A stretch of DNA of 45,377 bases, taken from sequence record MT446391.1; one strand, 5' to 3'. This document shows positions 27,008-41,343 of the stretch, piece by piece. The stretch is from Escherichia virus TH13. The translations under genes were made by a program, and so were the position numbers. How positions within the stretch are numbered: the stretch's first letter is position 1; each line of letters begins with the position of its first letter. The notes under the pieces were generated by a model. It was not told the DNA's origin, did not search any database, and was given only the letters and a program-made list of their open reading frames with translations.

Positions 27008-27017
27008 CTTAAGATAA

Positions 27018-27044
27018 TGCAACCAATATGATTATGCAACCAAT
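27018..27044 (-). promoter_or_regulatory. paired ATGCAACCAAT motifs / candidate promoter (TTGCAT-N17-TATCTT on minus strand)
   Basis: two copies of atgcaaccaat 17 bp apart in the intergenic gap between 27045..27368 and 26505..26963. Confidence 0.4.
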
Positions 27045-27368
27045 TTACGCATAAAAGTTCGGGTCGCGTGCGACGTCTACCAGGTAAAGGTTGCTTATGC
27101 GGTTGCCGTAGTGCCCTGGAGTGCGCTGGCGGCACACAACGGCGAAGCCTGGAGGGATTGTATTGCCCGTCTCAATAATCCACGCCACGCGTGCGCCAGA
27201 CAGCGTCTTTCCGTTGCATTCGATACGTGTTCCACCATCGGCAGTATTGATGTTGCCAATCTTGCAGCCGGTGGACTTCAGACGGATGACTCCGGTTTTG
27301 CTGTCGTAGGTGAATAGCTGGTTAGTCATTGCGACTGAAAAATCGATGGTTTCGTATGTAGCGTTCAT
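27045..27368 (-). CDS. hypothetical protein (degenerate HNH-like?)
   Basis: 107 aa; ARVAWIIETGNTIPPGFAVVCRQ...NRISNLYLV loosely resembles the HNH_3-type core but catalytic His/Asn not clearly conserved. Confidence 0.4.
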   Translation of the reverse strand: MNATYETIDFSVAMTNQLFTYDSKTGVIRLKSTGCKIGNINTADGGTRIECNGKTLSGARVAWIIETGNTIPPGFAVVCRQRTPGHYGNRISNLYLVDVARDPNFYA

Positions 27369-28075
27369 TTTAAATTTTCCTCGTTAACCGCTATCGCGAA
27401 GCCGCGCGGAGTGAGTGAGCGGATTAATTTTGTACGAGCGGATTTACCACCGAGGCGACTATACTGTTTCGAGTACCCTTTTTCAACGAAAACAGGTTTC
27501 TTCTCTGGCATACGGAAGCCGTTGCCGGTCCATAAGCAAGTCAGCTTCGGATATGAATCGCGGGCGTTGATGTATTCCGGGAAGAGCGGGTGTACGTCAT
27601 CCTCCGGCAGATACCCCCCATACTCCCACGGGTCGAACGAGTGATCCGGCTTGCGCCACTGGGTGGAAAGCACACTGCGCGGATTCTCAATCATATATGG
27701 CACTTCGAAGAAGTCACCCAGGTAAGCGGCGATCTTCGCGGTGCGCACCGCCTTAAGCTGAAAGGCGGGGTCTTTTGCACGTTTGCGCGGGAAAGCTGGC
27801 GCGCCGCTCACTGCCAGATCCGTACACGGAGGGAACGCATAGATTATATCCGGCGTACCGAAATCGCCATTCATCGCGCGGTCCACAAAGTCCATATCGA
27901 TAAACTCATTGCGATATCGGATTCCACGACCATAAATCCGGTAGTCAAGGTATGATCCGTGATCGGCTTCGGAGTAGTTGAAGCAATAACACTTATGCCC
28001 CATCTCGGCAGCACGCTCAATCATCAAGCCGCTGCCGTCAAACAATGACCAGATTGTCATTTTCGCAATAGTCAT
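27365..28075 (-). CDS. DNA (cytosine-5)-methyltransferase-like protein, unusually short
   Basis: 236 aa; motif I-like SLFDGSG, motif IV-like FPPCTDLAVSG (Pro-Cys dipeptide), motif VI-like MIENP; no room for a typical target-recognition domain or motifs IX/X. Confidence 0.5.
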   Translation of the reverse strand: MTIAKMTIWSLFDGSGLMIERAAEMGHKCYCFNYSEADHGSYLDYRIYGRGIRYRNEFIDMDFVDRAMNGDFGTPDIIYAFPPCTDLAVSGAPAFPRKRAKDPAFQLKAVRTAKIAAYLGDFFEVPYMIENPRSVLSTQWRKPDHSFDPWEYGGYLPEDDVHPLFPEYINARDSYPKLTCLWTGNGFRMPEKKPVFVEKGYSKQYSRLGGKSARTKLIRSLTPRGFAIAVNEENLK

Positions 28076-29496
28076 TTGCGCGCCTTCTTAGCTTTCATGT
28101 ATTCCATCAAGTCGTCCTGAATGTCTCGCTTACTGTCGCGACGCTCGGCGACCAATTCGTCCAGTGTCCCGCGAGCCTGGATAATGTAGACGAATACTGG
28201 TCGAGGGTGTCCGGCTTGCATCTGGCGAACCGGCCCGATACGTTCAACGATCTGCGAAAAGTGTTCAAAGTTCCAGGTGTCTGAGAAGATTGCCAGGTGA
28301 TGACCGCCGTCCTGCAAGTTAAGGCCGTGACCAGCCGATGCCGGGTGTGCGAACATGATGGGGATCTCGCCTCTGTTCCACGCTTCCATATCCTTATTGC
28401 CTTGCTTACCCTTACCCAGCGCTACGCCGTGCGGAAATTTCTTCTTAAGACGTGCCAGGTCATGCTTATACTGATACGCAACGAGCAACGGCGCGCCGTT
28501 CAACTCCTCCACGATACTTTCCAGCGCGTCCAGTTTAGCGTCGTGAATTTTCACCCATTCATCGGTGCGCTCGCCGTCTTCGTCGACCTTATATACGGCC
28601 CCGGAAGCAAGCTGAAGGCACTTAATGGTCTTCGACGCGGCGTTTGCGGCCTCCACAGTTCCGCTTTCCAGTTCGGCAAATAGCTCACTTTCAAACTGGT
28701 CGTAAATCTTGCGGGCTTTCTTCGGCAGGTCCACGACAACCGGCGTATAGATTGGCTTGTCGCACCCGAAGTATTCAGCCGCGTCAACGGTTAGTGATAC
28801 GTCAGACAGGCGTTGTTGTATTTCTTTCTCGGAGTTCTTTAGCGGGGCGTGCTGCATAGTGAAGCTGCCAGGCTTAACCGGCTTGCTAATGAACCAGCGA
28901 TCGGTAAATGCCTTATAGCTACTGCCGAGGCGTTCGCCACCGTCGACAAACCACGTCTGACCCCACAGGTCTTTCAGTCCGTTTGGAGCGGGCGTGCCGG
29001 TCAGGTTAATCCAGCGCTTGACGTGCTTATGTGCGATCGCCGCCAGGGCGCGGGCGCGCTTACTGCCCTGCTTGCTGCGGTAGCCTTTCAGCTTAGTGGA
29101 TTCATCGGCAACAACGACCGTAAAGGGCCACGCATCGCCGTAATAGTCAACCAACCACTCAACCACATCATAGTTAACACAAACCACGTTAGCGTCGCTC
29201 TCAAGCGCTGCAATACGGTCCTTCTCAGGTCCAGTGCCGTCTACGACCAGCAGGGATGAGAATCGCCATTTCTCCTGCTCCGGTGGCCAGGTGCCGGACG
29301 CAACGCGCAGCGGGGCCAGCACCAGTACGCGGTCCTCATGATGGGACAGGACGCCAGTCTGGAACATTTTATTCAGCGCCCACATTGTCGCGCCGGTTTT
29401 ACCGGATCCCATTGTCGCCCATATATTACATCGCTTATGCTTGAGGATGAACGCGGTTATCAACTTCTGATATTCGCGGCGTCGGAATCTTGCCAT
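28072..29496 (-). CDS. SNF2/DEAD-like superfamily 2 helicase
   Basis: Walker A MGSGKTGAT, motif II-like VVADESTK, C-terminal helicase domain; start placed at internal ATG (MARFRRREYQ) to avoid an 86-nt overlap; track ORF extends to 29586. Confidence 0.75.
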   Translation of the reverse strand: MARFRRREYQKLITAFILKHKRCNIWATMGSGKTGATMWALNKMFQTGVLSHHEDRVLVLAPLRVASGTWPPEQEKWRFSSLLVVDGTGPEKDRIAALESDANVVCVNYDVVEWLVDYYGDAWPFTVVVADESTKLKGYRSKQGSKRARALAAIAHKHVKRWINLTGTPAPNGLKDLWGQTWFVDGGERLGSSYKAFTDRWFISKPVKPGSFTMQHAPLKNSEKEIQQRLSDVSLTVDAAEYFGCDKPIYTPVVVDLPKKARKIYDQFESELFAELESGTVEAANAASKTIKCLQLASGAVYKVDEDGERTDEWVKIHDAKLDALESIVEELNGAPLLVAYQYKHDLARLKKKFPHGVALGKGKQGNKDMEAWNRGEIPIMFAHPASAGHGLNLQDGGHHLAIFSDTWNFEHFSQIVERIGPVRQMQAGHPRPVFVYIIQARGTLDELVAERRDSKRDIQDDLMEYMKAKKARK

Positions 29497-29500
29497 GTCT

Positions 29501-29725
29501 TTATTCCGCCTTTTTCCAGACTTCTGTCTCACTGTTCCAGTTCCTTTTTGTGGCGTCGTAGTTGGTGGCGTGTCCGATGTGGACACCGGTAGCCCGGAAG
29601 CTCTTAAATTTTTGCCAGCACACCGTCAACGGCAGCGGGTAATTCATGCCTGCGATAAACCACACGCGATCGCCCGGTTTACATTCGCCCAGCTTGGTGA
29701 GTCGGTAATGTTCTTTCATCGTCAT
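29501..29725 (-). CDS. small hypothetical protein
   Basis: 74 aa; stop immediately precedes the helicase start. Confidence 0.45.
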   Translation of the reverse strand: MTMKEHYRLTKLGECKPGDRVWFIAGMNYPLPLTVCWQKFKSFRATGVHIGHATNYDATKRNWNSETEVWKKAE

Positions 29726-29763
29726 GTCTCTCTAAAAATGGCGGGACAAGCCCGCCGTATTGA

Positions 29764-29937
29764 TTATTCTTGTTCTGCGCGATAGCGGCGCTGCCGTTCG
29801 CGCTCTTTCTTATTGCGGCACGACTTGCACTCGGCCCGATGCCCGTCCGGGCTGCGCGCAGTCTTACCGGTGTATTTGTGGAACTGGGACAGCGGCTTGA
29901 TGCAGCCGCAATTACTGCAACGTTTTTCTTCAATCAT
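29764..29937 (-). CDS. zinc-ribbon protein (CxxC...CxxC)
   Basis: 57 aa from ATG (MIEEKRCSNCGC...ECKSCRNKK) with RBS gagga; track ORF start at 30009 lies inside the duplicated segment. Confidence 0.5.
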   Translation of the reverse strand: MIEEKRCSNCGCIKPLSQFHKYTGKTARSPDGHRAECKSCRNKKERERQRRYRAEQE

Positions 29938-29968
29938 TTCTAAAATCCTCGATAGTGCTAACCGGCAC

Positions 29969-29997
29969 ACTATACCGCTACGCGACCAATTCAGCAA
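29969..29997 (-). promoter_or_regulatory. sigma70-like promoter (TTGCTG-N17-TATAGT) at left edge of tandem duplication; second copy at about 30556..30584
   Basis: -35 overlaps an AGCAACCAAT motif; -10 TATAGT; coordinates approximate. Confidence 0.4.
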
Positions 29998-30256
29998 CCA
30001 ATAAATCACAGTCGGCTATGTTGTCGATAACGCGAACGTCCGCACCGCGGCGGGCCATTCGTTCATGTTCACGTACCTGGTGCGGCTTCGGTTTCCCACC
30101 TGGGCGCTTCACTTCGACGAACACTATTTTGCCGTTGATGATAATAATCAGGTCGGGCGCACCTGCGCGCCCCTCCCATGCCAGTTTTCGGCAGAATCCC
30201 CCAACGGCTTTAACCAGCTTCATCAGGTGACTTTGTATCTTGCCTTCTGGTGTCAT
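29978..30256 (-). CDS. VRR-NUC domain nuclease, copy 1
   Basis: 92 aa; ...FVEVKRPGGKPKPHQ... with conserved D/E-x-K catalytic core typical of VRR-NUC. Confidence 0.8.
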   Translation of the reverse strand: MTPEGKIQSHLMKLVKAVGGFCRKLAWEGRAGAPDLIIIINGKIVFVEVKRPGGKPKPHQVREHERMARRGADVRVIDNIADCDLLVAELVA

Positions 30257-30444
30257 TTGGTCTGCAACTCCACGTTACGCAGACGAAGGTCTACCGGTAT
30301 ATCCGACCGGCCGGTTAGTGCCAGCGCCAGGTTTTCAGGCGTGACGAGTGCCGTAATGGTCTTGCCACGTTCCAGTCTAATGACGATTCGAATCTCGTCA
30401 TTGTCCGTCGCGCCAGCGCGCATAATGCTCATTTCTGCTTTCAT
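30253..30444 (-). CDS. small hypothetical protein, copy 1
   Basis: 63 aa from ATG (MKAEMSIMRAG...) with RBS caggaag; ATGA overlap with VRR-NUC. Confidence 0.45.
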   Translation of the reverse strand: MKAEMSIMRAGATDNDEIRIVIRLERGKTITALVTPENLALALTGRSDIPVDLRLRNVELQTK

Positions 30445-30564
30445 AATCTTACTTCCTGTACCTGTACATAATGTCGCCTTCGGCGGCAAGTGGGAAGCCT
30501 TTCGCCCAAATAGGCAGGTCGCACATCTAAAATCCTCGATAGTGCTAACCGGCACACTATACCG

Positions 30565-30843
30565 CTACGCGACCAATTCAGCAACCAATAAATCACAGTC
30601 GGCTATGTTGTCGATAACGCGAACGTCCGCACCGCGGCGGGCCATTCGTTCATGTTCACGTACCTGGTGCGGCTTCGGTTTCCCACCTGGGCGCTTCACT
30701 TCGACGAACACTATTTTGCCGTTGATGATAATAATCAGGTCGGGCGCACCTGCGCGCCCCTCCCATGCCAGTTTTCGGCAGAATCCCCCAACGGCTTTAA
30801 CCAGCTTCATCAGGTGACTTTGTATCTTGCCTTCTGGTGTCAT
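30565..30843 (-). CDS. VRR-NUC domain nuclease, copy 2
   Basis: identical 92-aa translation to copy 1. Confidence 0.8.
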   Translation of the reverse strand: MTPEGKIQSHLMKLVKAVGGFCRKLAWEGRAGAPDLIIIINGKIVFVEVKRPGGKPKPHQVREHERMARRGADVRVIDNIADCDLLVAELVA

Positions 30844-31031
30844 TTGGTCTGCAACTCCACGTTACGCAGACGAAGGTCTACCGGTATATCCGACCGGCCG
30901 GTTAGTGCCAGCGCCAGGTTTTCAGGCGTGACGAGTGCCGTAATGGTCTTGCCACGTTCCAGTCTAATGACGATTCGAATCTCGTCATTGTCCGTCGCGC
31001 CAGCGCGCATAATGCTCATTTCTGCTTTCAT
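30840..31031 (-). CDS. small hypothetical protein, copy 2
   Basis: identical 63-aa translation; begins 5 nt after DNA polymerase stop. Confidence 0.45.
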   Translation of the reverse strand: MKAEMSIMRAGATDNDEIRIVIRLERGKTITALVTPENLALALTGRSDIPVDLRLRNVELQTK

Positions 31032-31035
31032 AATC

Positions 31036-33327
31036 TTACTTCCTGTACCTGTACATAATGTCGCCTTCGGCGGCAAGTGGGAAGCCTTTCGCCCAAATAG
31101 GCAGGTCGCACATCAGCGCGCAAAGCTCCTCGGTCGTGTAGTCGTCGGTGTCCGGCACTTCTGTGATCAATTCGTCGTGTACTGACAGGACGATTTCATA
31201 TCCGGCAGCTTCAACGCCTGGCATGGACCATGCGAGAATATCGCGGCACAACGCCTGTACGATGTTCTCCGTCAGTTTGCCGCCGTAGGTGTACTGGAAG
31301 CCCCACTGGCGCGTAGTCTGATTCTCGCCCTGGTATTTGATGCGGGTGCTGGTGCGCTTCTTGCCGGTGTCTTCGTCAATCTCGGTCGTGACCGACAGCG
31401 CGATGCCTGGGTAGCTCATGATGCGCCCGGACGGCAACTCAATTTTCAACCACCACCCAGCGGCGTTCGGGTCGTCGCGCTCCTCGTCGAAGGTTGGGTC
31501 GTGCTTCGCCTTCGTGCGCACAATCTTAAGCGCTTTCCTACCGTCCGGGCGAACGTTCGCGCCGGCCCAGTATGCTTTGCCAGGATTGCGGATCGCACAT
31601 AACACCGCGTCCTCAAGCTCGGCCCAAAAGGCTACCGTCTTCGGGTGAGCCTCGCGCCACATACGTTTGATTGCGTCACAAGTCAGCCATACGTTTTTCG
31701 GCAGTATGTATGTTGGGCGCTCGTCCTTCTTACCGGGCTTCGGCGGGCGCTTCGCTTCGTTAATGCGGGCGTACTCATAACCACGTTTCGCCGCGGCCCA
31801 AATGTGATCCGGGAACGTGCCTTTCATCACGTCCGCCATAGTGTAAAGGTCGAGGCCCAGGTTTTTAGCGAACTGCAAGAACGCCGCGACGCCGCCACCA
31901 TAGCCCAGTCCCAATTCACACGCCTTACCGATCTGGCGCAAGTCTTTGCGGTTGGCTTTGATGTAATCCGGGTCAAGGCCGAACATCTTACCGGCAGTCT
32001 CGCAATAGATATCGCGACCGGCCTTAAACACCATTAGCGCGGTTTTCTCGCCCGCGATCCAGGCAAGGCCACGCCCTTCCACGTTGGAGTAGTCCGCGAC
32101 GACAAACTTCTTGCCCTTCGCCGGAATGATGCACCCACGAACGGTCGAGGCGGTCAGCTTAGATATGTCATACGCCCAGTGCGCGGTCCCGCGTAACAGG
32201 GAGTTGATGCCGTTGGTGAGCATGTGCGACCGCACCCAAAACGAGACGTCGCTCTCGCCTTCGCGGCGCTTAATCTTCCCTTCGTGGTCGTCGCTATACT
32301 CGCCGCGTGCCAGGTTTTGCGGCTGGAAGCCTTTACCTGCCCAGCGCAGCGTGCGCTTTGCACCACCATACTGAAGACACCCACGGCGGCGACCATCTGC
32401 GGATAAGCCATTAACGAGCGGATTGTACTTAGTCGAGGCCGTTGATGACGCGCCGAGGCGCATTTCGATAAGCGCTTTGCCTTCGTCGGGGAAGTCCGTG
32501 TCTTCAAGCAGGTCGTTAAGTGTGGATTTCTGCGCGTTGTGGATTGTGAACGCCGGGGCGATATCACGCAGGATTGGCAGGAAGTCATTGCCTGTCAGTT
32601 TACCACCAAATCGCTCCCAGGCTTCCTCCTTCAATTCTTCCTTATGCGCCTGCACCGCTTTGATCGCGGCGTTCGCCAGGTCAACGTCCACATAGAATCC
32701 GCGGTCGTTGATCAACTGGTCAATAAGCAGTATCTCGTCTTCCTTCGGAGTATTACCCCAGTCCGGTATGCGCCAGTAGACCTCACGCATCGCGATAATA
32801 TCCAGCGCGGCATATCGCAGAAATTTGGCCCATTCTTCAGGGTGAGTCTCGCGCGTGTAGCGGCGTATTTTGTAGGTCTTAGGGGTAGGCTTACAGAATC
32901 GTTTGATCAGCGCCTTGCCTGCCTTATCCTTCGCGTGCTCTGCGTCAACGCCCAGCACCTGACACTGCATATCGAGGCTACCCGGCAGCGCGTGCCGAAA
33001 GGCCATAATCATGGTATCTTCGATCTGGCACACTGGCAGGTCAATGCCCCACTTCTCGCGAATGACCAGGCGGTCAAACAGGAGGCCGTTAGCCATCACG
33101 ATTTTTGCTTTCTTGCGGCATACCTGGCGGAGCGCCTTGCGCAGTTCACGCGGCATTGTTGGGGATTCAGTGGCATCCCATGTCTGCACGCGGCCCTCGT
33201 CGATGGCGTATGTGCAAATCATAATCTCGGTGGTTGGGTGCTCTGCGTAGGCGTACGCCCCTACTTTCTTCAGGTCAACCCCGCTGAATGTCTCGGTGTC
33301 GAGAAACAGGCGTTCGAAGTCTTTCAT
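31036..33327 (-). CDS. DNA polymerase, family A (Pol I-like) with N-terminal 3-prime-5-prime exonuclease-like region
   Basis: 763 aa; LSVHDELITEV (motif C-like HDE), ELGLGYGGG motif B-like region; last 26 codons are duplicated in the tandem repeat. Confidence 0.85.
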   Translation of the reverse strand: MKDFERLFLDTETFSGVDLKKVGAYAYAEHPTTEIMICTYAIDEGRVQTWDATESPTMPRELRKALRQVCRKKAKIVMANGLLFDRLVIREKWGIDLPVCQIEDTMIMAFRHALPGSLDMQCQVLGVDAEHAKDKAGKALIKRFCKPTPKTYKIRRYTRETHPEEWAKFLRYAALDIIAMREVYWRIPDWGNTPKEDEILLIDQLINDRGFYVDVDLANAAIKAVQAHKEELKEEAWERFGGKLTGNDFLPILRDIAPAFTIHNAQKSTLNDLLEDTDFPDEGKALIEMRLGASSTASTKYNPLVNGLSADGRRRGCLQYGGAKRTLRWAGKGFQPQNLARGEYSDDHEGKIKRREGESDVSFWVRSHMLTNGINSLLRGTAHWAYDISKLTASTVRGCIIPAKGKKFVVADYSNVEGRGLAWIAGEKTALMVFKAGRDIYCETAGKMFGLDPDYIKANRKDLRQIGKACELGLGYGGGVAAFLQFAKNLGLDLYTMADVMKGTFPDHIWAAAKRGYEYARINEAKRPPKPGKKDERPTYILPKNVWLTCDAIKRMWREAHPKTVAFWAELEDAVLCAIRNPGKAYWAGANVRPDGRKALKIVRTKAKHDPTFDEERDDPNAAGWWLKIELPSGRIMSYPGIALSVTTEIDEDTGKKRTSTRIKYQGENQTTRQWGFQYTYGGKLTENIVQALCRDILAWSMPGVEAAGYEIVLSVHDELITEVPDTDDYTTEELCALMCDLPIWAKGFPLAAEGDIMYRYRK

Positions 33328-33494
33328 TGCTTTATCCTCACTACGGCGTCAGCGCTGCCGATCATGGAGAAGATGCCGTCGGACAGGGCGATCTCTTCTC
33401 CATTGTTGCGAATCTCGGCAACTGTGAAATACTCGCCCAGCAATTTGGACCATACCTGCATTCCGACTTTTACTTCGCTGGCTTTAATACGCAT
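33324..33494 (-). CDS. small hypothetical protein (56 aa)
   Basis: ATG with RBS aggacaatgaaaa; stop overlaps polymerase start (ATGA); below track cutoff; coordinates approximate. Confidence 0.35.
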   Translation of the reverse strand: MRIKASEVKVGMQVWSKLLGEYFTVAEIRNNGEEIALSDGIFSMIGSADAVVRIKQ

Positions 33495-33508
33495 TTTTCA
33501 TTGTCCTA

Positions 33509-33533
33509 TTAAAAAGCCCGCATTAAGCGGGCT
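33509..33533 (-). terminator. rho-independent terminator after SSB-like gene
   Basis: minus-strand agcccgc-uuaau-gcgggcu hairpin followed by U5. Confidence 0.55.
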
Positions 33534-33552
33534 TGAATAGTGGGCTTTGCCC

Positions 33553-34338
33553 TTAACGGCGGCGACGTTTACGTGGCGCTTCGTCTTCGTCGTCGTCCTC
33601 ATCTTCGTCATCGCGTGGCTTACGACGTTTGCGAGGTTTTTCATCTTCCTCATCGTCGTCATCACGACGTTTTGACTTTTTGGACTTGCGCGGCTTGTCA
33701 TCTTCATCATCGTCATCACGACGTTTTGACTTTTTGGACTTGCGCGGTGCTTCGTCTTCGTCGTCGTTGTCGTTGTCCAGGTCTTCATCGGAGCAAGAAG
33801 ACCCGCCACCTCCGAAGGCTTCGCCGTCTTCACGGAATCGCAGACCCAGCAAGCCAGCCCCGAGACCTTTGCCGTTGGTATTGTTCCATGCCCAAATATC
33901 AAGGGACACGTTGCAATAACAACCGGAGTAGATCTCCTGGCCTTCGATCTCGTCGCCTTCTACGTTCAGACCTTGTTCCGTCTGCTTCTCGCCGAGTGAC
34001 GTTTGAATGATCGGCTGTTTGAACGATTTGGCGTTGATATACAACATGCCTTCGAATTCTTCGGTTACTTCGTCGCGCTCGTCACCGTCGCGAACTGCGC
34101 ATTCCTTAGAATCCTGGGCGTAGTGGCGGTCCATCCACTTATCGGCATTCTTCTCGGATTTCAGCTTATCGGTGAGCACTGCGCGCGCTGCCGCTTCCAC
34201 TTTGTCCACCTGCGGATCTTCTTTATCCAGAAGAATAACGGCACGGTATGCCGGTTTTTGACCATCCTGTTTAGGGGTATCACGTTCCCAAATTTTAAGG
34301 AAGCATACGCGCACATTTTTCAGGTTGACTTTAGCCAT
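33553..34338 (-). CDS. ssDNA-binding-like protein with C-terminal charged-repeat tail
   Basis: 261 aa from ATG (MAKVNLKNVRVCF...) with RBS gaggaa; N-terminal OB-fold-like region; C-terminal 18-aa repeats KPRKSKKSKRRDDDDEDD. Confidence 0.5.
   Translation of the reverse strand: MAKVNLKNVRVCFLKIWERDTPKQDGQKPAYRAVILLDKEDPQVDKVEAAARAVLTDKLKSEKNADKWMDRHYAQDSKECAVRDGDERDEVTEEFEGMLYINAKSFKQPIIQTSLGEKQTEQGLNVEGDEIEGQEIYSGCYCNVSLDIWAWNNTNGKGLGAGLLGLRFREDGEAFGGGGSSCSDEDLDNDNDDEDEAPRKSKKSKRRDDDDEDDKPRKSKKSKRRDDDDEEDEKPRKRRKPRDDEDEDDDEDEAPRKRRRR
33659..33747 (-). repeat. in-frame coding tandem repeat (54-bp period) in SSB-like gene
   Basis: tcatcacgacgttttgactttttggacttgcgcgg repeated twice. Confidence 0.6.
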
Positions 34339-34428
34339 TTTCCAATTCCTCATTTTCACATGTATCGGGGTTATTGTGAGCCACCCCGTCCGGCTTGGTT
34401 GCTAATCTACTTGGTTGCGCCTGAGCGG

Positions 34429-34671
34429 TCAAGCATTTTTATTAAAAAGATTTCGTGTCACGTAGTTGGTGGCGTTCTCGATCCAGCTTAACGGCGGGCG
34501 TTCGATGTTCTTTTCCACCCAATCGACGGCAACTTCGCTATAGCCGTCATCCAGCCAGCGGGTCGGATGGCGAATCATCCACGCCACCATTAACACGCCT
34601 TGCACGCAATGCAGGATAAAGCCCAGCGCTCCGAGCAAAAACATCAATAAGATTGCGAATACTTTATTCAT
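34429..34671 (-). CDS. small membrane protein
   Basis: 80 aa; N-terminal hydrophobic helices (VFAILLMFLLGALGFILHCVQGVLMVAWMI). Confidence 0.5.
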   Translation of the reverse strand: MNKVFAILLMFLLGALGFILHCVQGVLMVAWMIRHPTRWLDDGYSEVAVDWVEKNIERPPLSWIENATNYVTRNLFNKNA

Positions 34672-36094
34672 TGCTTAAGTCCTCGTCAGTAGCTTCCGAC
34701 CACGCAGGGCGCGGGTCGTCGATTGGTGCTAACACCGGTTTGGCAGGTGCGCGCGTGATTTTATCACACAGCTTCGCCCACACTTTCGGTTTTTCGTCCT
34801 TCAGTACCTTCTCGGCATCCGTAGGGCTGAGCAATGTTTCTTTGTACATCACATCGCGCTTGATCCGGGCCTTCGTGAAGATTTCAATAACTTCGCTCTC
34901 GTCCGCCCACTTACGGATCCCTTCCTTACCGGCAACCATCTTGAGGCCCAGCGATTCGCCATCGCCCGCCATAACCGCTTTGAATACCGCGGACTCGATA
35001 GCCTTGATGTGCTGGCGCATTGCGTCAAGACCTTCATATGCCTTGCGCAGTTCCGCCGCGCTCATAGCGCCTGGTGCCGCTTCTTTCTCACCACGCTTCG
35101 CACGTCGTGCCGCTTTGCGGGCTTCGCGGGCCATATTGCGGTCGTGATTGGCGCATTCTTCCTCTGTCGCAATACTCACGTCGTCGCCCAGGTCTTCGTC
35201 TGTTGCCGTTGGTGGGGTCATCGTGTCGATTGCAGCCTTAGCGCGGGCGCTACACTGATCCGCAAATCTGCACCACTGGCACGCATCGACGCTGGGCCGG
35301 AAGTCTGCGCGGGTTAGTCCCTTTTTGCCGCGGGCGTACGCTTCCAGGGCGGCGATAGCACGCTTGGACGCAAACTTCGCGAATATCTCCAGGGCTTCTA
35401 CAGAAATATCCCACTCCGACGCCCCGCCGCAATACGGCTGGAAGATAACCAGGCGCACGGTCGTAATATCGTACATGGTTTGCAGCTTGCGCAGCAGGCC
35501 CAGCGCATACAACATAAGCTGTTTGTTTTCTTTCGCCTCGACCTTATGTCGTCCCGTCTTCAGGTCGCCAACAATCAGCATGTACGTGCCGTCGGTCTTC
35601 TTCATGACCATGACCATATCGGCAGTACCGAACGTCTTAACCCGGTTGCCGTCGATCTCGAAGCCGGAGTGTAGGACGCGGGTAAGATCGGCGCGCATCT
35701 CAAGCTGAACAAACTCCGCCACTTCGAGGAGCGGTCGCCAGTGGTCGATGTATGCGTCGCACTGTTTCACCATATCGTCGTTGACCAGTACGCCACCTTT
35801 CGGTGCTTTCGGGTGCGCCTTTACCGGTCCCTTACCTTCGTTCTCTACGTAGCACCCTTTGTACGTCTTCGCTGTTATTCCCTTCTCACCGGCGATAATG
35901 CGGTTGAGCACGACTTCAGATACGGTGTGCATACTCGTACCGTTAATCGCCGCCTGCCCGGATTCGTTCGGGATATCTTTTTCTACCACCAGGGCGGCAG
36001 GGCAACCCATCCATTTTTTAGCACCGGATGGGCCGAGTAAAGAGTGTTCCGTGTTGCTACCGGATTGCGTTTTACGTTTTGGTTTAATCGCCAT
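34664..36094 (-). CDS. PD-(D/E)XK nuclease, Cas4/RecB-like with C-terminal Cys cluster
   Basis: 476 aa; N-terminal LLGPSGAKKWMGCP, core IVGDLKTGRHK, C-terminal CQWCRFADQC cysteine cluster as in Cas4/AddB-type Fe-S nucleases. Confidence 0.65.
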   Translation of the reverse strand: MAIKPKRKTQSGSNTEHSLLGPSGAKKWMGCPAALVVEKDIPNESGQAAINGTSMHTVSEVVLNRIIAGEKGITAKTYKGCYVENEGKGPVKAHPKAPKGGVLVNDDMVKQCDAYIDHWRPLLEVAEFVQLEMRADLTRVLHSGFEIDGNRVKTFGTADMVMVMKKTDGTYMLIVGDLKTGRHKVEAKENKQLMLYALGLLRKLQTMYDITTVRLVIFQPYCGGASEWDISVEALEIFAKFASKRAIAALEAYARGKKGLTRADFRPSVDACQWCRFADQCSARAKAAIDTMTPPTATDEDLGDDVSIATEEECANHDRNMAREARKAARRAKRGEKEAAPGAMSAAELRKAYEGLDAMRQHIKAIESAVFKAVMAGDGESLGLKMVAGKEGIRKWADESEVIEIFTKARIKRDVMYKETLLSPTDAEKVLKDEKPKVWAKLCDKITRAPAKPVLAPIDDPRPAWSEATDEDLSNE

Positions 36095-36282
36095 TATTCC
36101 ACCCTTGAAAATTGAGCAATGTAATAGTCGTGTTTAACATTGGCCCGCTTCGCGGCTTCGTTCATGGTCGATGCCAGTCCTCGGGCTTGCGTCCAGCAGC
36201 AATTCCAGTTTTGATTCATAACAATTTCGGGCTGCTCGTCGCCGGTGATACGGCAACGAAATAAAACAAAGAATATAGCCAT
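36094..36282 (-). CDS. small hypothetical protein
   Basis: 62 aa; ATG overlaps stop of upstream gene (TAAATG). Confidence 0.35.
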   Translation of the reverse strand: MAIFFVLFRCRITGDEQPEIVMNQNWNCCWTQARGLASTMNEAAKRANVKHDYYIAQFSRVE

Positions 36283-36534
36283 TTATTTCGTCTCCCAGCG
36301 GTCAATCGTTCTTGCTTCGGATGCAACCGCAAAGCGAACATATTCCAGATTGGAGTCCGCCCAAATATAAAAGTCGGGGTTAGTAAAGGTGGTGCGCTTG
36401 ATTTGCGCGGGCGTGTTACGGCGTTTATCTATTACGGCAACGCGGGATTGAAAGCTGCCGATGCGTTCGAATAGCCAATAGTACGGGCGCTGGTCGCGGG
36501 AATCCACCGCCTCGATTAGCGTGAATCGTGCCAT
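36283..36534 (-). CDS. hypothetical protein
   Basis: 83 aa; RBS gaggacgag. Confidence 0.5.
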   Translation of the reverse strand: MARFTLIEAVDSRDQRPYYWLFERIGSFQSRVAVIDKRRNTPAQIKRTTFTNPDFYIWADSNLEYVRFAVASEARTIDRWETK

Positions 36535-36544
36535 TGTCTCGTCC

Positions 36545-36573
36545 TCTAAAAAGAGGCCCGCTAATATGCGGGC
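36545..36573 (-). terminator. rho-independent terminator after first early genes
   Basis: minus-strand ggcccgc-auauua-gcgggcc hairpin followed by U5. Confidence 0.6.
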
Positions 36574-36582
36574 CGGATAATA

Positions 36583-36708
36583 TTAATCTTCACCGCCGAG
36601 TTGTTTATAAACCTCGTCCGGGTCGTCGCCTCTTTCTTCGCAGAAGGCGGTGAATGCCGCCCAATTTTCTGCTATGAAATCGAGCATGATTCTCATTTCA
36701 TAGTCCAT
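36583..36708 (-). CDS. small hypothetical protein (about 41 aa, acidic)
   Basis: MDYEMRIMLDFIAENWAAFTAFCEERGDDPDEVYKQLGGED; below track cutoff; coordinates approximate. Confidence 0.3.
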   Translation of the reverse strand: MDYEMRIMLDFIAENWAAFTAFCEERGDDPDEVYKQLGGED

Positions 36709-36712
36709 GATA

Positions 36713-37231
36713 TTAGTCTTCCAGTTCGAAATAAGTCTCGACGATTTCTTTTAAATCTTTGTGGAAGTCTTCGACGTCGTCGTCTTCCAGCTTGGCGATT
36801 GATTTGATCTCGAACGCTTCCAGCAGGTCGTCAAATTCGTCGTTAGCATCGTCGTCATCGCCACCGGCGATAATCGCGGCGTACTGCTTGATCTCGTCGC
36901 GCATCTCTGCCAGCGGATCGGCATCTTTCTTCCCTTTGCCTTTCGCCGGAGCTTTTTTACCCTTCGCCGGTTTTTCGTCTTCGGCTTCTTCATCGTCGTC
37001 ATCTTCTACGACTTCTTTTTTGGCCTTACCTTTAGCCGGGGATTTTTTAGATTTAGCCGGTTTTTCGTCTTCGGCGTCATCGTCGTCATCTTCGACAACT
37101 TCTTTTTTGGCCTTAGACGGCTTCTTATCTTCCTGTTTACCAACGGCAGCGCCAACGGTTTCATAATGCTTTGCAATGGTTTCCAGTGCTACTACGCCGC
37201 GAGTGATCAGGTTTACGATTTGCTCAAACAT
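36713..37231 (-). CDS. acidic charged-repeat protein, first gene of early arm
   Basis: 172 aa from ATG (MFEQIVNL...) with RBS ggagatatacc; two 30-aa repeats EVVEDDDD-AEDEKPAK-KK-PAKGK-KK and an acidic C-terminal helix; track ORF extends upstream without RBS support. Confidence 0.6.
   Translation of the reverse strand: MFEQIVNLITRGVVALETIAKHYETVGAAVGKQEDKKPSKAKKEVVEDDDDDAEDEKPAKSKKSPAKGKAKKEVVEDDDDEEAEDEKPAKGKKAPAKGKGKKDADPLAEMRDEIKQYAAIIAGGDDDDANDEFDDLLEAFEIKSIAKLEDDDVEDFHKDLKEIVETYFELED
36966..37114 (-). repeat. in-frame coding tandem repeat (90-bp period) in acidic early gene
   Basis: gccggtttttcgtcttcggc...cttcttttttggcctta repeated twice. Confidence 0.6.
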
Positions 37232-37468
37232 GGTATATCTCCGATTGGTTAAGTTTAGGTGTCGGCAGTTAACTTCGTCGCTGGCCTTAACATATTGCCA
37301 GGTTACGCGTTCTCCCGTTCGGGTAGTGGACCTGGTTATATAATCACGGTTGGGAATCCTGACACTTCGATCCGGCCCCTGCGTTGCCCCTCTCCAGTTT
37401 GCGTCCTGCATCCTGTCGACGGAGTGAATGATAGATTGGTTGCAGGATAGGTGTCAACAACTAATTTC

Positions 37469-37502
37469 AAAAAAAAAGCGCCGAGGCAAAATGCGACGGC
37501 GC
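37469..37502 (-). terminator. promoter-proximal rho-independent terminator in early control region
   Basis: minus-strand gcgccg..cggcgc hairpin (plus 37478..37502) followed by U9. Confidence 0.6.
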
Positions 37503-37527
37503 TAACCAATAAGAGACAATGAGACGA
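37469..37527 (-). ncRNA. candidate short leader/small RNA between leftward promoter and terminator
   Basis: predicted leftward promoter at 37533..37561 followed within about 60 nt by a strong terminator; no ORF. Confidence 0.25.
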
Positions 37528-37532
37528 GAATT

Positions 37533-37561
37533 ATTATTACACGCGTGCGCGCCCGTTTCAA
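37533..37561 (-). promoter_or_regulatory. sigma70-like leftward promoter (TTGAAA-N17-AATAAT)
   Basis: read on the minus strand; back-to-back with the rightward promoter. Confidence 0.45.
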
Positions 37562-37573
37562 TATCCAAAGGAT

Positions 37574-37602
37574 TTGACACCGTGCAGTTTTGGGTGTAGT
37601 TT
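37574..37602 (+). promoter_or_regulatory. sigma70-like rightward promoter (TTGACA-N17-TAGTTT)
   Basis: consensus -35 TTGACA, 17-bp spacer, weak -10; about 30 nt upstream of the HTH gene. Confidence 0.45.
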
Positions 37603-37633
37603 CGTTGGTCATTAACCAACTGAGGGCAGAGCA

Positions 37634-37963
37634 ATGAATGTAAACGACGCAATCGAAATGTTAACGAAGACTGTTTGCAGTGAGACAAGCCGGTCGTGGG
37701 CATACACCGATGCCGTGGGGGCTGTGTTATTTGAAATCGAACGACTGCGGCTTACCGAAAAAGAATTGCGCGCCAGGCTGGAACTACTCAACGGTACAGC
37801 AGCAAGCAAGCTGCAAAAACACAATGAAGAAATGGAAGAATACAAAAAGCAGGTTATCCGTTTGCGCGCCGAGGGTAAATCATGGGCGATGATTGCCGAG
37901 TTGACCGGGATTAATCAGAGCACAGTGCGCTCCTGGGTACGCAATAATAAAACTTCTAAGTAA
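37634..37963 (+). CDS. putative DNA-binding regulator (C-terminal helix-turn-helix)
   Basis: 109 aa; coiled-coil middle, C-terminal GKSWAMIAELTGINQSTVRSWVRNN HTH-like segment. Confidence 0.5.
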   Translation: MNVNDAIEMLTKTVCSETSRSWAYTDAVGAVLFEIERLRLTEKELRARLELLNGTAASKLQKHNEEMEEYKKQVIRLRAEGKSWAMIAELTGINQSTVRSWVRNNKTSK

Positions 37964-37973
37964 GGCCACGGCA

Positions 37974-40238
37974 ATGAGCTTGATTAAATTCGCTGTAACA
38001 AAACCCGCTAAAAAAGGCGAAAAAGCCAGGGCGGAAAACTTCCAGATGACGACCGATGAGTTTTTCGAATTTATCAAAGATGCGAAAGAAATCTCCTCGG
38101 TGCATATCAACAAGACGGAAGATAAAGCCGAGTATGCGCGCCGCAAGCGTAAGGCCGATGGCATCGTGGCGTATACCAGTGACGGATTGCGTCGTAAGAC
38201 CAGTGCGGTGGACCGCTCGATCCTGTTCTTTGATATTGACCGCACCGACACCCGCACCCTGCGCCGCTGCCGTAAGGCGTTCATCGACGCGGGACTGGAA
38301 CATGTATTTCACACCACAACCGGCGACCGCCACCCGCTGAAAGGTGGCACGCGTTGCGCTCGTTTCCTGGTGCTCACCGACAAGCCTGTACCGGCGGAAG
38401 ACCTAGGCCGCGTACAGTATGCACTGTTACACCAACTGGGCCTGTCAGATGTGGACTTCGATGATTGTACGAAAGACACAAACCGCCTTATGTACCTACC
38501 ACACCAGCAGTCCGTTGTTAAGTGTCACTACGGCAAACGTGCCCGCGTCCGTCGTCTGCTTCGCCTGGCGGATAAGCTGGGAGTGGAAAAAGAGGAAGTA
38601 CGACGCGAACTGACCCAGGGCGATGACGGCGTGGCTGACGGTATTCTGGATTGGTGCTTCCAGGCGGGATTCGAACCGCTGTCGTCCGGTCGTGGTTATG
38701 AAGTGCCATGCCCGAACGAACACCTGCACAGTGGTGAAGGGTCCACCGCTATCATGGTTAAGGATGGCGAGATCCGTTTCAAGTGTATGCATACCGGCAA
38801 CGAGTGTTGCTCGGAGCTGAACAGACACCAGCACCTGGCGCTACGTCTTATCGGGATCCCGGACCACCTGAACGTCGAACCGCACAACATGTCACGTAAG
38901 CAAATCGCCGCCATCCTTCCAGGACTGGACGACGAGGAAGTGGAATCGTGCTATGCGCATATCGTTGATGCGGTCGGAGACGGCGACGAGTACGGCGGAT
39001 GTACAGATGCAGACCTGGACAACGAGCCGGTTGCGCTGTTCAGTAAGCACGACCCGATCATCGAGGGGCTGATTAACTTCAAATCGACCTGGTATCTTGC
39101 TGGCGAGTCGAACATCGGTAAATCGTTCTACGTGCTGGGCCAGATGGCGTCAGTATCTGCCGGTATTCCGTTCGGCGGCGCGAAGGTCGTCCAGTGCCAC
39201 AACTTCTATTTCGACGCGGAAGGTGGTGAAGCCTCCAACCAGCGTAAGGAAGCATTGCAGATCAAATATGAGCACGACCTGGACAAGCTGCACATTATCG
39301 ATCTGCAGTCACGCGGCTGGGATATCACCAGCAAATCCGGCTTGCGTGAAGTTATCAGCTTTATCAACCGCACCGCTAACGGCGAGCCGGTTGGCCTGGT
39401 GGCGTTCGACTCACTCAACCAGACTGTCGCGTTGCGGTCAGCCGATGCTAAACCGTTCGACGAGAACAACGCCAGCGATATGGGCGAAGTGGTCAAAGCG
39501 CTGAAGGCTATTGCGGAAAACACAGGCGGCAGTGCGGGAGTCATCCACCACCCGGCGAAAGGTGCAAACGGCAGCAGATCTCCCCGCGGGTCCGGCGCGC
39601 TGCATGGTGCTGTCGATTCCGCGTTCTTCCTGGAGCAACCGGACGACAATCAGCCGGGCCAATTGAACCTGTACCATGAGAAGGCACGTAACGGCATCAA
39701 GCAAGCGCCGCGCGGCTTCGTCCTGCTTAAGTGCAAGGTTAAGGTGGATCTCCGCAAGTCAGAGGCGTTCGAATCGCACCAGTCCACCAGCACCGGGCCT
39801 GACTTCGGTGATGTGGTTGCAGGATGGGACGTCAAGCCGATCGCATCAACGCCACGCGACGAGACTCTTTACCTCGTACCTGTCGCCCTGGCACCGTTCG
39901 CTATTGAGCAGGCGAAGGCCGCGGGTAAGGCAGCAGTTAAGGAAGAGAACCCCGCAGGACCGCGCAACGAAAAAGAGAAAGTGCTTTATGCGGCGCTGGA
40001 AAAACTGATGGAAGATAACCCGGACCATACCGGATTCAGTAAATCGGCAATCGTCCGCCAGGCTGGACTTGCGAAAGGTGGCACATCGACGAAGGCAATA
40101 GACGATATGGTCGAGCGCGGCGTGCTCGGTTTCTATACAGATCCGCACACCGGGGCCATCTATGGGTCATCGAATATCGTCATCAAAACGAATATACCCA
40201 TCACGCTTTCGGCGACCGATGATGATTTAAAAGATTAA
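37974..40238 (+). CDS. DNA primase/helicase-like replication protein
   Basis: 754 aa; Zn-binding-like CPNEHLHSGEGS...CMHTGNECC; C-terminal RecA/DnaB-like ATPase segment (Walker A-like AGESNIGKS, ...VAFDSLNQ...). Confidence 0.6.
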   Translation: MSLIKFAVTKPAKKGEKARAENFQMTTDEFFEFIKDAKEISSVHINKTEDKAEYARRKRKADGIVAYTSDGLRRKTSAVDRSILFFDIDRTDTRTLRRCRKAFIDAGLEHVFHTTTGDRHPLKGGTRCARFLVLTDKPVPAEDLGRVQYALLHQLGLSDVDFDDCTKDTNRLMYLPHQQSVVKCHYGKRARVRRLLRLADKLGVEKEEVRRELTQGDDGVADGILDWCFQAGFEPLSSGRGYEVPCPNEHLHSGEGSTAIMVKDGEIRFKCMHTGNECCSELNRHQHLALRLIGIPDHLNVEPHNMSRKQIAAILPGLDDEEVESCYAHIVDAVGDGDEYGGCTDADLDNEPVALFSKHDPIIEGLINFKSTWYLAGESNIGKSFYVLGQMASVSAGIPFGGAKVVQCHNFYFDAEGGEASNQRKEALQIKYEHDLDKLHIIDLQSRGWDITSKSGLREVISFINRTANGEPVGLVAFDSLNQTVALRSADAKPFDENNASDMGEVVKALKAIAENTGGSAGVIHHPAKGANGSRSPRGSGALHGAVDSAFFLEQPDDNQPGQLNLYHEKARNGIKQAPRGFVLLKCKVKVDLRKSEAFESHQSTSTGPDFGDVVAGWDVKPIASTPRDETLYLVPVALAPFAIEQAKAAGKAAVKEENPAGPRNEKEKVLYAALEKLMEDNPDHTGFSKSAIVRQAGLAKGGTSTKAIDDMVERGVLGFYTDPHTGAIYGSSNIVIKTNIPITLSATDDDLKD

Positions 40239-40313
40239 ATTTTGCGCGCATTGGTTGCCGATATGGGAATTCCCATATCGCTAGAAGATTAAATTTTGCG
40301 CGCATTGGTTGCC
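40231..40313. repeat. 29-bp perfect direct repeats flanking a 22-bp perfect palindrome
   Basis: aagattaaattttgcgcgcattggttgcc x2 around cgatatgggaattcccatatcg; third partial copy (tattggttgcc) about 40339; first repeat contains the primase stop codon. Confidence 0.7.
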
Positions 40314-40387
40314 ATTTTGAGTGTTTTTATCTGGTCGTATTGGTTGCCGTGTAGTGTAAATATAGTGAATAGTTATGCAGTTTTATT

Positions 40388-40562
40388 GCATAAAGTAAGC
40401 GGGACAAAAAGCGGGACAAACAAGGGGCGGGACAAAGCGGGACAGCACCCCTGTCCCACCCCGGATGACGCGGCCTGGAGAGGAGCGGGACAGGCGGGAC
40501 AACCCCCAGTCTTTCAGACTAGACGGGGGGTCAATGGCCCCCCTCGTCTGAGACTGAATAAA
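40388..40562. repeat. GGGACA-iteron element copy 2
   Basis: tgcataaagtaagcgggacaaaaagcgggacaaacaagg-gcgggacaaagcgggacagcaccc ... agtctttcagactagacgggggg-tcaatgg-cccccctcgtctgagactgaataa; about 75 bp 5-prime and 60 bp 3-prime near-identical to copy 1, middle about 40 bp diverged. Confidence 0.7.
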
Positions 40563-40716
40563 ATCCGGGGATTGCAAAATACACGGCAGCATGATGCGAA
40601 GTGCGGTCGAGGATGAACTAGGCAACCAATGCGAGATGCATTATGCTGAGTGAAAAATGCAGTTTGCAGTCACAGCAGATAGCGATCAACTTTTTCATGC
40701 GCATGTTTGATATTGG

Positions 40717-40745
40717 TTGCATTCAACCCGGCACCTGGCTATATT
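40717..40745 (+). promoter_or_regulatory. sigma70-like promoter (TTGCAT-N17-TATATT) for 40774 operon
   Basis: -35 is part of an ATTGGTTGCAT motif; about 30 nt upstream of the start codon. Confidence 0.5.
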
Positions 40746-40773
40746 GGTTGCGCACCAACATGAGGACTGAACA

Positions 40774-41064
40774 ATGAGAGCGTTAATCTGGAATTACACA
40801 ATGGCAGTGGCAAAACCGGTCGAAGCGAGATATACCAACGGCAGAGCACCGTGGGAGCGCCTGGTAGCTCCGACCTGGTTTGCGGTCATGGATGCGACCG
40901 CGGGCATGGAAGACCCCGAGCCGTTGCGCGCGGCTATCAGGGCTTACGCGCTTGCATTTGCCCGTGAACGCCTGGCCTATCGCTTCGGTATTGGCGATAA
41001 GGCAGTGACAAACGTCGCCCGGATTAAAGCCCAGCGCGAACTATTCTCCAAGCTTGCGAAATAA
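40774..41064 (+). CDS. hypothetical protein
   Basis: 96 aa; RBS gagga. Confidence 0.5.
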   Translation: MRALIWNYTMAVAKPVEARYTNGRAPWERLVAPTWFAVMDATAGMEDPEPLRAAIRAYALAFARERLAYRFGIGDKAVTNVARIKAQRELFSKLAK

Positions 41065-41073
41065 GGGGCCAAA

Positions 41074-41343
41074 ATGAGCCGTAGGCGCGCTAAACAGCTT
41101 TCCTGGCATATCCCCCTGCATTGCATACGAATATGGGCTGAGAATGCGGTTGAGGGCGAATCTGTATTCTGGTGCTATCGCGATGATGTGAAGCCGTTGA
41201 CGCAGACTCGCTACTTGCACCAGTTCGCAGCACAACACGATTTCAGGGTGCGTACTTCCTTGCAACCAATTGGAATACGTATTACATTACGCCGGAAGCC
41301 CGCCGTTGAGCGGGTAGGCAAACACTGGAGACTGAGCAAATGA
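41074..41343 (+). CDS. hypothetical protein
   Basis: 89 aa. Confidence 0.45.
   Translation: MSRRRAKQLSWHIPLHCIRIWAENAVEGESVFWCYRDDVKPLTQTRYLHQFAAQHDFRVRTSLQPIGIRITLRRKPAVERVGKHWRLSK

Follow-up and report, generated by a model that had tools for sequence, protein, structure and literature searches.

A candidate iteron and stem-loop replication origin, with a twin among the tail genes, 3' of the helicase-primase gene of Dhillonvirus phages

A conserved core in the gap after the helicase-primase gene

We analyzed the 45,377-nt sequence of the Dhillonvirus Escherichia virus TH13 (sequence record MT446391.1; this whole stretch is called the window below) for the nature of the long gap that follows its helicase-primase gene. 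This gene, the second of a rightward pair whose first member encodes a small helix-turn-helix (HTH) protein, ends with a TAA at 40236-40238, and the next ATG is at 40774, which leaves a gap of 535 bp (40239-40773). The gap is taken to be noncoding because the open reading frames (ORFs) in it, 40296-40616 on the plus strand and 40383-40625 on the minus strand, are broken by single-base indels in related genomes. A preliminary description of this DNA had called the gap a candidate origin or regulatory centre, with 29-bp repeats as iterons beside a palindrome near its 5' end, and had treated an array of GGGACA elements as a passenger. An origin or regulatory centre is still the best reading of the gap, but for other reasons than those then given: it is the array, together with an AT-rich box and a hairpin, that carries the origin-like properties. 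The array is present at two loci only, has a fixed length, has its word replaced in distant relatives, and adjoins a helicase-primase with a predicted winged helix.

Three parts make up the conserved core of the gap (40350-40561): an AT-rich stretch, two sets of CGGGACA repeats numbering six in total, and a 50-nt hairpin whose stems are invariant. The AT-rich stretch (plus strand, 40350-40398) contains the imperfect palindromic box TGAATAGTTATGCA at 40366-40379 and TGCATAAAGTAA at 40387-40398. AT-richness had been claimed for 40350-40395, and it is there, but only moderately so (73% A+T in 30-bp windows versus a genome mean of 46%); this stretch is a candidate unwinding or accessory-factor site. 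In a pattern scan the box matched, at 12 of 14 positions, TGAATWWWWATTCA, the core of the E. coli ARG box, making a host factor such as ArgR a lead. The array follows at 40399-40501 on the plus strand, with four exact copies of GCGGGACA (40399, 40411, 40427, and 40437), an inverted TGTCCC at 40452-40457, a GC-rich spacer of ~30 bp, and two more copies (40485 and 40494), the six being spaced by 12, 16, 10, 48, and 9 bp. Supporting that this word is confined to particular loci, the window has 15 exact copies of GCGGGACA against 1.9 expected, and 13 of them lie either in this gap or at 11529-11761, as do 19 of the window's 29 copies of the shorter CGGGAC when both regions are counted in full.

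Immediately after the array, at 40507-40556, is an imperfect hairpin of the form CAGTCTTTCAGACTAGACGGGGGG-loop-CCCCCCTCGTCTGAGACTG, with a DNA fold of -15 kcal/mol (z=-3.75). The next bases are GAATAAAATCC rather than a T-run, and a terminator scan of both strands over 39800-41200 returned no sites. A further conserved block, ATTGCAAAATACACGGCAGCA, is at 40571-40591 on the plus strand.

Positions 40200-40800 were 100% identical to Escherichia virus TH11, while the other 157 matching phage records, nearly all of them Dhillonvirus phages of E. coli or Shigella (e.g., HK578, SO-1, and JL1), were almost all 77-95% identical. These 158 records gave 358 matching places, most records having at least two. 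The gap element had in fact been noticed before, as the GenBank record of Sodalis phage SO-1 marks it as a repeat_region, "region B", with a comment on direct, inverted, and palindromic repeats and on sequence similarity to a "region A" sited between the tail chaperone and tape-measure genes. We retain these two names. A literature search found no functional study of the element, and we found no description of the origin or promoters of Dhillonvirus, HK578, or Jerseyvirus in the searchable literature.

A second copy of the core in the tail genes

In the window, region A (11509-11885, plus strand; sequence comparison and the SO-1 annotation) extends from the tail-chaperone stop at 11508 to the tape-measure ATG at 11884. 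Its core (11625-11820) has six iterons at the same spacings as those of region B and the same hairpin, at 11767-11815. Compared with 40365-40561, it is 82% identical over 178 nt, and the final 36 nt are 100% identical; over the core as a whole the two regions are 85.5% identical. Region A has in addition two upstream units with CGGGACGTCCCG palindromes (11514-11616), which brings its CGGGAC boxes to 13 in all. Every region A copy also has an extended -10-like sequence, TGATACAAT (11839-11847 in the window), 36 bp upstream of the tape-measure ATG, and from its sequence this may be an internal promoter for the distal tail genes.

We collected 34 distinct A and B core copies. In these the order is the AT-rich stretch (with the TGAATAGTTATGCA box and TGCATAAA), four direct iterons and one inverted, the GC-rich spacer, two iterons, and the hairpin. 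The distance from TGCATAAA to just beyond the hairpin is 181 or 182 nt in every Dhillonvirus copy of A or B, and 179 nt in one copy from the related L050-like lineage (see below). The CGGGAC boxes and both hairpin arms are invariant, while the spacers and the hairpin loop vary; the loop of the Ioannina-type Dhillonviruses, for instance, is TATTGTCCCC. None of the 30 predicted pairs showed a compensatory change among the 34 cores, and as the stems never vary, this covariation test is uninformative for or against structure within the genus.

A labile module at the 5' end of the gap

The features that had been put forward as origin iterons are located upstream of the core, in a 5' module at 40231-40313 (plus strand; sequence and alignment). 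We could reproduce all of them: two perfect 29-bp direct repeats AAGATTAAATTTTGCGCGCATTGGTTGCC at 40231-40259 and 40285-40313, each with a terminal ATTGGTTGCC, flank a perfect 22-bp palindrome CGATATGGGAATTCCCATATCG with a central GAATTC (40259-40280), and a third, partial repeat is present at 40331-40347. The first of the 29-bp repeats overlaps the stop codon of the helicase-primase gene and the two codons before it. An alignment of the gap from 17 Dhillonvirus copies indicated that the repeats and palindrome amount to one labile 54-bp unit. Seven of the 17 have two repeats and the palindrome, the latter often imperfect, and eight, HK578 and SO-1 among these, have a single repeat without the palindrome; of the remaining two, Ioannina has two repeats with a shorter spacer and one genome has lost part of a repeat. 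Both main states were found in both main clades, and the unit is presumably gained and lost through recombination between the repeats. Because it comes and goes, it cannot be an essential origin element, and on this alignment the 5' module is dispensable. The ATTGGTTGC word contained in the repeats is, moreover, not origin-specific. The lability of the unit and the genome-wide occurrence of the word are what moved our emphasis to the core, with its CGGGACA repeats, box, and hairpin, and to the twin of this core in region A.

The same position in related lineages

Homologs of the helicase-primase fell into tiers of 79-97%, 67-69%, and 44-49% identity, the last including Guernseyvirinae. In all seven lineages examined, which span 97% to 44% identity, a noncoding gap of 290-645 bp is directly 3' of the helicase-primase gene, and in six of the seven this gap has a clear repeat word of its own, with five distinct words in all (lineages without a published name are given here by our labels). 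The word is CGGGACA, six direct and one inverted with the 50-nt hairpin, in the Dhillonvirus window; it is the same in L050 (69% identity), which has the window's hairpin and inverted upstream ATTGGTTGC copies. L057, phiEap-2, and Pantoea phage AH01 have CGGACAA, with a TGAATAG(T/A)TATGC box (doubled at 21 bp in L057) and a hairpin that is spelled differently. Cornellvirus VSiP has four direct and one inverted GGGGGAGA and two TGAATAGTTAT boxes 22 bp apart; L052 has ACTCGCAA/TTGCGAGT, two direct then two inverted, plus more, and a 67-nt hairpin (z=-5.3); and L056 has GTGCGGAA/TTCCGCAC. There was no clear repeat word in L055. Five lineages have a hairpin after the array (z between -2.3 and -5.3), and those of L057, phiEap-2, L052, and AH01 have another spelling at the same position.

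Several smaller likenesses accompany this replacement of the repeat word. The TGAATAGTTATGCA box is kept across genera that differ in both repeat word and HTH protein (L053:12334-12369, L057:3837-3871, L179:39927-39960, and L180:402-437), and in VSiP and L057 it takes the form of two tandem boxes 21-22 bp apart. In the CGGACAA lineages an inverted iteron (TTGTCCG, CTGTCCG, or TTGTCCA) is in or near the hairpin loop (L057:3982-3992, L179:40097-40110, and L180:563-575). Most lineages also have CGGCA(G/A)CA downstream of the hairpin, often after TTGCAA or before CAAA (40571-40591 in the window; L050:12510-12520, L052:12590-12599, L053:12575-12585, L057:4060-4072, and L180:604-616).

A second repeat cluster within structural genes was found in two lineages, at different places: region A of Dhillonvirus, and a cluster in L052, whose helicase-primase is 48% identical. 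The latter is a second set of ACTCGCAA/TTGCGAGT words at 22100-22200, after a Mu-F-like head gene, and resembles L052's own post-primase region. Judging from these sequences, the two-site arrangement arose, or was kept, at different places in the two lineages. VSiP and phiEap-2 have a single copy each, and no second cluster was found in either.

We also scanned 596 Gb of bacterial genomes for the 17-mer GCGGGACAAAGCGGGAC. There were at least 120 scattered matches in unrelated, mostly GC-rich taxa, which is about what chance would give for a 17-mer; none of the matches listed was in Enterobacteriaceae, and plasmids gave no match.

The helicase-primase and the small HTH protein

By domain prediction, the helicase-primase (37974-40238, plus strand, 754 residues) begins with an AEP-like region in which a DxD is invariant; residues 246-287 form a Cys/His cluster, residues 357-531 a RepA-like AAA_25 helicase domain, and approximately residues 666-738 (nt 39969-40187) a C-terminal winged helix. 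Its C-terminal 110 residues are the least conserved part, with 23-36% identity in the distant lineages versus 44-49% for the whole protein. A sequence search of PDB gave a marginal match only, to RSF1010 RepA (1g8y, E=0.46). The protein ends in an acidic tail, DDDLKD (40218-40235), that is conserved, D751 being invariant and L752 nearly so; it recalls the C-terminal tails by which T7 gp4 and SSB proteins contact their partners. We rejected an apparent homology of residues 645-754 (39906-40235) to the TALE-like BurrH (PDB 4cj9), as its profile E-value of 3e-33 was inflated by repetition (21 repeats of 2-11 bits each). The BurrH profile match runs through the motif GFSxAxIVKxAG-GG.

The gene for the small HTH protein (37634-37963, plus strand) encodes a homolog of SO-1 gp47 with matches to Pfam HTH_23, HTH_28, and Sigma70_r4_2 and to phrog_9366. 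A small HTH gene is at the same position in every lineage examined, and its HTH family differs by lineage.

In the gene map these two genes begin a plus-strand block (from 37634) that continues with the 535-bp gap, small genes, holins, and lysozyme. It is preceded by replication genes on the minus strand (20766-37411; DNA polymerase, ssDNA-binding protein, exonuclease, and SNF2 helicase), and these by packaging, head, and tail genes on the plus strand (99-20740). We noted a 587-bp unit in perfect tandem duplication (29939-30527 and 30526-31114, base for base), with a small nuclease gene on one side of it and the DNA polymerase gene's 3' end on the other. The unit is single-copy in HK578, Pandora71, and Ioannina; the duplication is either real and recent or an assembly artefact.

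The ATTGGTTGC word and a promoter-like module at the 3' end of the gap

The window has 16 exact copies of ATTGGTTGC against 0.48 expected (5911, 5924, 22011, 25366, 27019, 27036, 29994, 30581, 37435, 40250, 40304, 40339, 40622, 40712, 40743, and 41262). Six are in 40231-40773, one of them inverted; beyond those within the repeats there are, as the preliminary description had it, three more, at 40622 (minus strand), 40712, and 40743. Exact and near-copies together group at ~9 places in the genome, nearly all of them intergenic and promoter-like. The strand of the word is that of the downstream gene in most cases, pairs 12-31 bp apart are frequent, and the word often overlaps a TTGC.. -35, with TTGC.. 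located 16-17 bp upstream of a -10-like hexamer at 22011, 27036, 29994, 37435, and 40712. We found none upstream of the plus-strand structural genes in 99-20740. Copies are present at the same places in HK578, Pandora71, and Ioannina; the word itself is found again in the L050 and L052 lineages and was not found in VSiP. On this distribution ATTGGTTGC is probably a phage-specific part of an early, middle, or moron promoter/operator.

The copy at 40339-40347 (plus strand), the third in the gap, is conserved in all Dhillonvirus copies and is followed by TATAGT at 40361-40366 (TATAAT in several genomes). From the sequence, the two could form a promoter directed into the core, although TTGCCG is spaced closely to the hexamer and there was no match in a consensus scan. 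The inverted copy (40622-40630, minus strand) is conserved across the genus, and alignment revealed a highly conserved 53-nt block at 40650-40702, upstream of the promoter-like site described next. A 26-codon micro-ORF, MKKLIAICCDCKLHFSLSIMHLALVA (40618-40698, minus strand), overlaps this block, and HK578 has a small minus-strand coding sequence (CDS) annotated there; a 1-nt deletion in L019 and L010 frameshifts its C-terminal half. That it is coding is possible from its sequence but doubtful.

At 40712-40751 on the plus strand, the copy at 40712 provides a -35 of TTGCAT (40717-40722), which is followed after 17 bp by a -10 of TATATT (40740-40745), while the copy at 40743 spans the -10/+1 of the module; the next gene starts at 40774. 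The module is conserved in the genus with a -10 of TATATT or TAGATT, is 29 bp ahead of the start codon, and has its arrangement repeated at 5911/5924 (minus strand). These hexamers had been called a promoter and are present as claimed, but they match the consensus at eight of 12 positions, three of six in the -35 and five of six in the -10, so that the -35 is short of our sigma-70 criterion (at least four of six per hexamer, with a spacer of 16-18 bp), and the consensus scan of 39800-41200 returned no promoter-like sites. On sequence grounds, 40717-40745 is plausible as a weak or factor-dependent promoter. For the 3' third of the gap (40562-40773) the best reading is a promoter module, separate from the core, that would serve the downstream small, lysis, and late genes, and the "regulatory centre" half of the original proposal fits it.

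Interpretation of the core

Taking sequence, domain models, and analogies together, we propose with moderate confidence that the core at 40350-40561 is an iteron and stem-loop origin placed 3' of its initiator gene, that region A is a second site resembling oriR of phage SPP1, and that the promoter module then follows. What the analysis shows is the anatomy, the distribution of conservation, the restriction of the repeat word to two loci, its replacement in related lineages, and, by prediction, the winged-helix fold; which protein binds the repeats, and that replication starts within the gap, is our inference. Domain predictions place a protein with the parts of an initiator (AAA_25 helicase, AEP-like N-terminus, and predicted winged helix) next to the core; and of two similar elements, as in SPP1, one (B) is at the putative initiator gene and the other (A) in the late genes. 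The winged helix of the helicase-primase would bind the CGGGACA repeats, and the protein would assemble on these and the neighboring hairpin, open the DNA in or near the AT-rich box region, prime, and unwind, perhaps assisted by transcription from the promoter-like site of ATTGGTTGC type at 40339. The same protein would have its second binding site in region A, which might act as a second origin or as a bound obstacle at which forks stall and synthesis switches to concatemers, as proposed for SPP1 oriR.

A number of observations weigh against this proposal. Cumulative GC skew reaches its minimum at ~37 kb, within the divergent promoter region (37412-37633), rather than at 40.4 kb, although skew is weak evidence because it follows gene strand in this genome, and we set it aside as an origin locator on that ground. 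The repeats are short (7-8 bp) and irregularly spaced, and the spacer between the two iteron sets is GC-rich (~25-30% A+T), unlike the origins of phage-inducible chromosomal islands (PICIs), the AT-rich DNA, ~45 bp long, being located upstream of the first set. Neither a DnaA box (TTATNCACA), allowing one mismatch, nor an exact IHF consensus is present in region B; in region A, two DnaA-like sites differ from the box by one mismatch. The idea that the core would be more conserved than the neighboring gene was not borne out, as the window and L050 are 70% identical in the core versus 67% in the gene, with the conservation held in the boxes. The co-variation of repeat word and winged helix (five words in seven lineages) is also ambiguous, since lineages differ in the small HTH protein no less than in the winged helix, and the repeats could therefore be operators of the HTH protein, and the L057 word CGGACAA is near that of Dhillonvirus, yet the L057 winged helix is very different. 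Finally, both known second copies are co-oriented inside a late operon, where a transcriptional role also fits.

This last set of points leads to what we consider a possible, if rather unlikely, alternative, in which the gap is purely for transcription control and the CGGGACA arrays are operators of a phage regulator such as the small HTH protein, acting at the early/late boundary (region B) and within the late operon (region A). Together with the hairpin the arrays might form a roadblock or attenuator, or they might serve to activate promoters a short way downstream. The placement agrees with it, as region B is at that boundary and both region A and the second L052 cluster are inside the structural operon and along the direction of transcription; promoter-like elements follow both cores (40717-40745 and TGATACAAT at 11839-11847), the small HTH protein, like the repeat word, is not the same from lineage to lineage, terminators were annotated within regions A and B in HK578 and CS16, and a T-run follows the hairpin in L057 and L052. 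However, the Dhillonvirus hairpin lacks a T-run on either strand and the terminator scan was empty; arrays 100-250 bp upstream of candidate promoters, with a strong hairpin between, would be unusual for activators; 6-13 copies of an 8-mer exceed the usual need of an operator; the genome-wide promoter-associated word is another one, ATTGGTTGC; and the winged helix of the helicase-primase would be left without a target. A related idea, which we consider improbable, is that the core is no origin but a cis-acting loading site on the late transcription unit, at which a phage protein on the array, together with the hairpin, resets RNA polymerase (anti-termination or insulation), first at the early/late boundary and then in the middle of the operon. 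The independent acquisition of a second, co-oriented copy in the structural genes of two lineages would be explained in this way.

A role for the core at the RNA level is less probable still; it would be a structured transcript, as a small RNA or as a cis anti-termination element comparable to lambda nut or HK022 put, with one copy where the rightward late unit starts and another inside that unit. Both cores are on the same strand in the transcribed direction and keep a length of 181-182 nt, as RNA they fold stably (-74 kcal/mol, z=-3.0), and the hairpin stems are invariant with a varying loop; but the opposite strand folds equally well (-74.1 kcal/mol, z=-2.4), not one of the 30 predicted pairs has a compensatory change in the genus, and Rfam 15 had no match at gathering score, the best sub-threshold hit being mir-606 with 26 bits versus 80. 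Scans for tRNA and tmRNA found none. The occurrence of the word in both orientations and in perfect palindromes (CGGGACGTCCCG in region A and ACTCGCAA/TTGCGAGT in L052) points to recognition of duplex DNA, and VSiP and phiEap-2 have just one core copy. We give hardly any credence to a packaging role, in which the packaging enzyme would recognize the arrays (as pac, or as cosB-like repeats bound by the small terminase), even if short repeated boxes occur in the terminase-binding regions of other phages and some GenBank records begin or end inside or just after region B. Those record ends had suggested that region B was a physical genome end (cos or pac), a candidate we dropped because the ends are arbitrary: the Pandora71 record begins exactly 100 bp before a CDS, and that of phiEap-2, whose paper gives no mapped termini, ends on the stop of an unannotated ORF. 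The array is in addition ~4.7 kb from the terminase genes, what is conserved is its place beside the helicase-primase gene, the tail-gene copy would misdirect packaging, and in a Kagunavirus study PhageTerm gave no defined termini (PMC9825357).

Work on phage defence and therapy makes wide use of Dhillonviruses (such as HK578, SECphi18, and several of the BASEL phages) and of the related Guernseyvirinae, and if the origin proposal is correct, a defined origin and second site could serve as replicons and engineering tools and help in reading defence systems that sense replication. The series of repeat words (CGGGACA, CGGACAA, GGGGGAGA, TTGCGAGT, and GTGCGGAA) would then be a natural set of initiator and word pairs for winged-helix specificity, and a coliphage would be available in which to test the SPP1-like switch with a second origin as fork barrier. 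Nothing here overturns current understanding, as origins of this kind are known from other phages and plasmids.

Comparison with known replicators

The gene order of the proposed origin has counterparts in several systems. In the Sulfolobus plasmid pRN1 an essential stem-loop is in noncoding DNA 3' of orf904, which encodes a prim-pol, helicase, and winged-helix protein and is co-transcribed with the small repressor gene orf56, a layout its authors also see in some bacteriophages (PMC4234260). The likeness is in the operon, a small DNA-binding regulator followed by an AEP primase, helicase, and C-terminal winged-helix protein with a stem-loop 3' of the rep gene; the differences are that the pRN1 helicase is of superfamily 3 (SF3) rather than RepA/AAA_25-like, that pRN1 has no iterons, and that its stem-loop is 100 nt with low sequence conservation versus 50 nt and invariant in the genus here. 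The PICIs, such as the SaPIs, have a pri-rep-ori order with many short, element-specific iterons in two sets (PMC6092414). There too the origin is immediately 3' of the initiator gene, but the iteron sets flank an AT-rich region, whereas here the DNA between the sets is GC-rich and the AT-rich stretch is upstream.

A looser parallel is with the IncQ plasmid RSF1010, whose RepA belongs to the same AAA_25 helicase fold family (the weak 1g8y match, E=0.46). Its oriV combines iterons, GC-rich and AT-rich segments, and hairpin single-strand initiation sites that are read by a dedicated primase. By this analogy the hairpin here might, as pure inference, be a priming signal. The three activities of RSF1010 (RepA helicase, RepB' primase, and RepC iteron binder) have been discussed as an analogue (PMC4234260). 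They reside in three separate proteins, and the RSF1010 iterons are 20 bp and regularly spaced.

For the presence of two sites, SPP1 is the closest counterpart. Its oriL is at the initiator gene and its oriR interrupts the late genes, each having direct repeats as well as an AT-rich stretch bound by gp38, and oriR with bound gp38 has been proposed to stall a fork and so trigger the switch from theta to concatemer replication (PMC6316719, PMC3485210). SPP1, a virulent siphovirus with a genome of ~44 kb, resembles the window's phage in having a pair of similar elements, these being ~13 kb apart on the circular map versus 16.6 kb here. The two differ in that SPP1 has in gp38 a separate initiator, which acts together with a loader and a DnaB-type helicase, while here primase, helicase, and putative DNA-binding domain are in one chain, and in that oriL is inside gene 38 while the region here is 3' of the gene; we found no sequence relationship, gp38 itself not having been compared directly. 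The alpha protein of P4 is a primase-helicase whose C-terminal winged helix binds origin repeats, as cited in PMC4234260. It has a Toprim-type primase and an SF3 helicase, and PDB searches found no sequence similarity. P4 also requires crr, a second repeat-bearing site several kb away. To us this arrangement of two sites, which by analogy would be SPP1-like or P4-like, is the most interesting aspect of the region.

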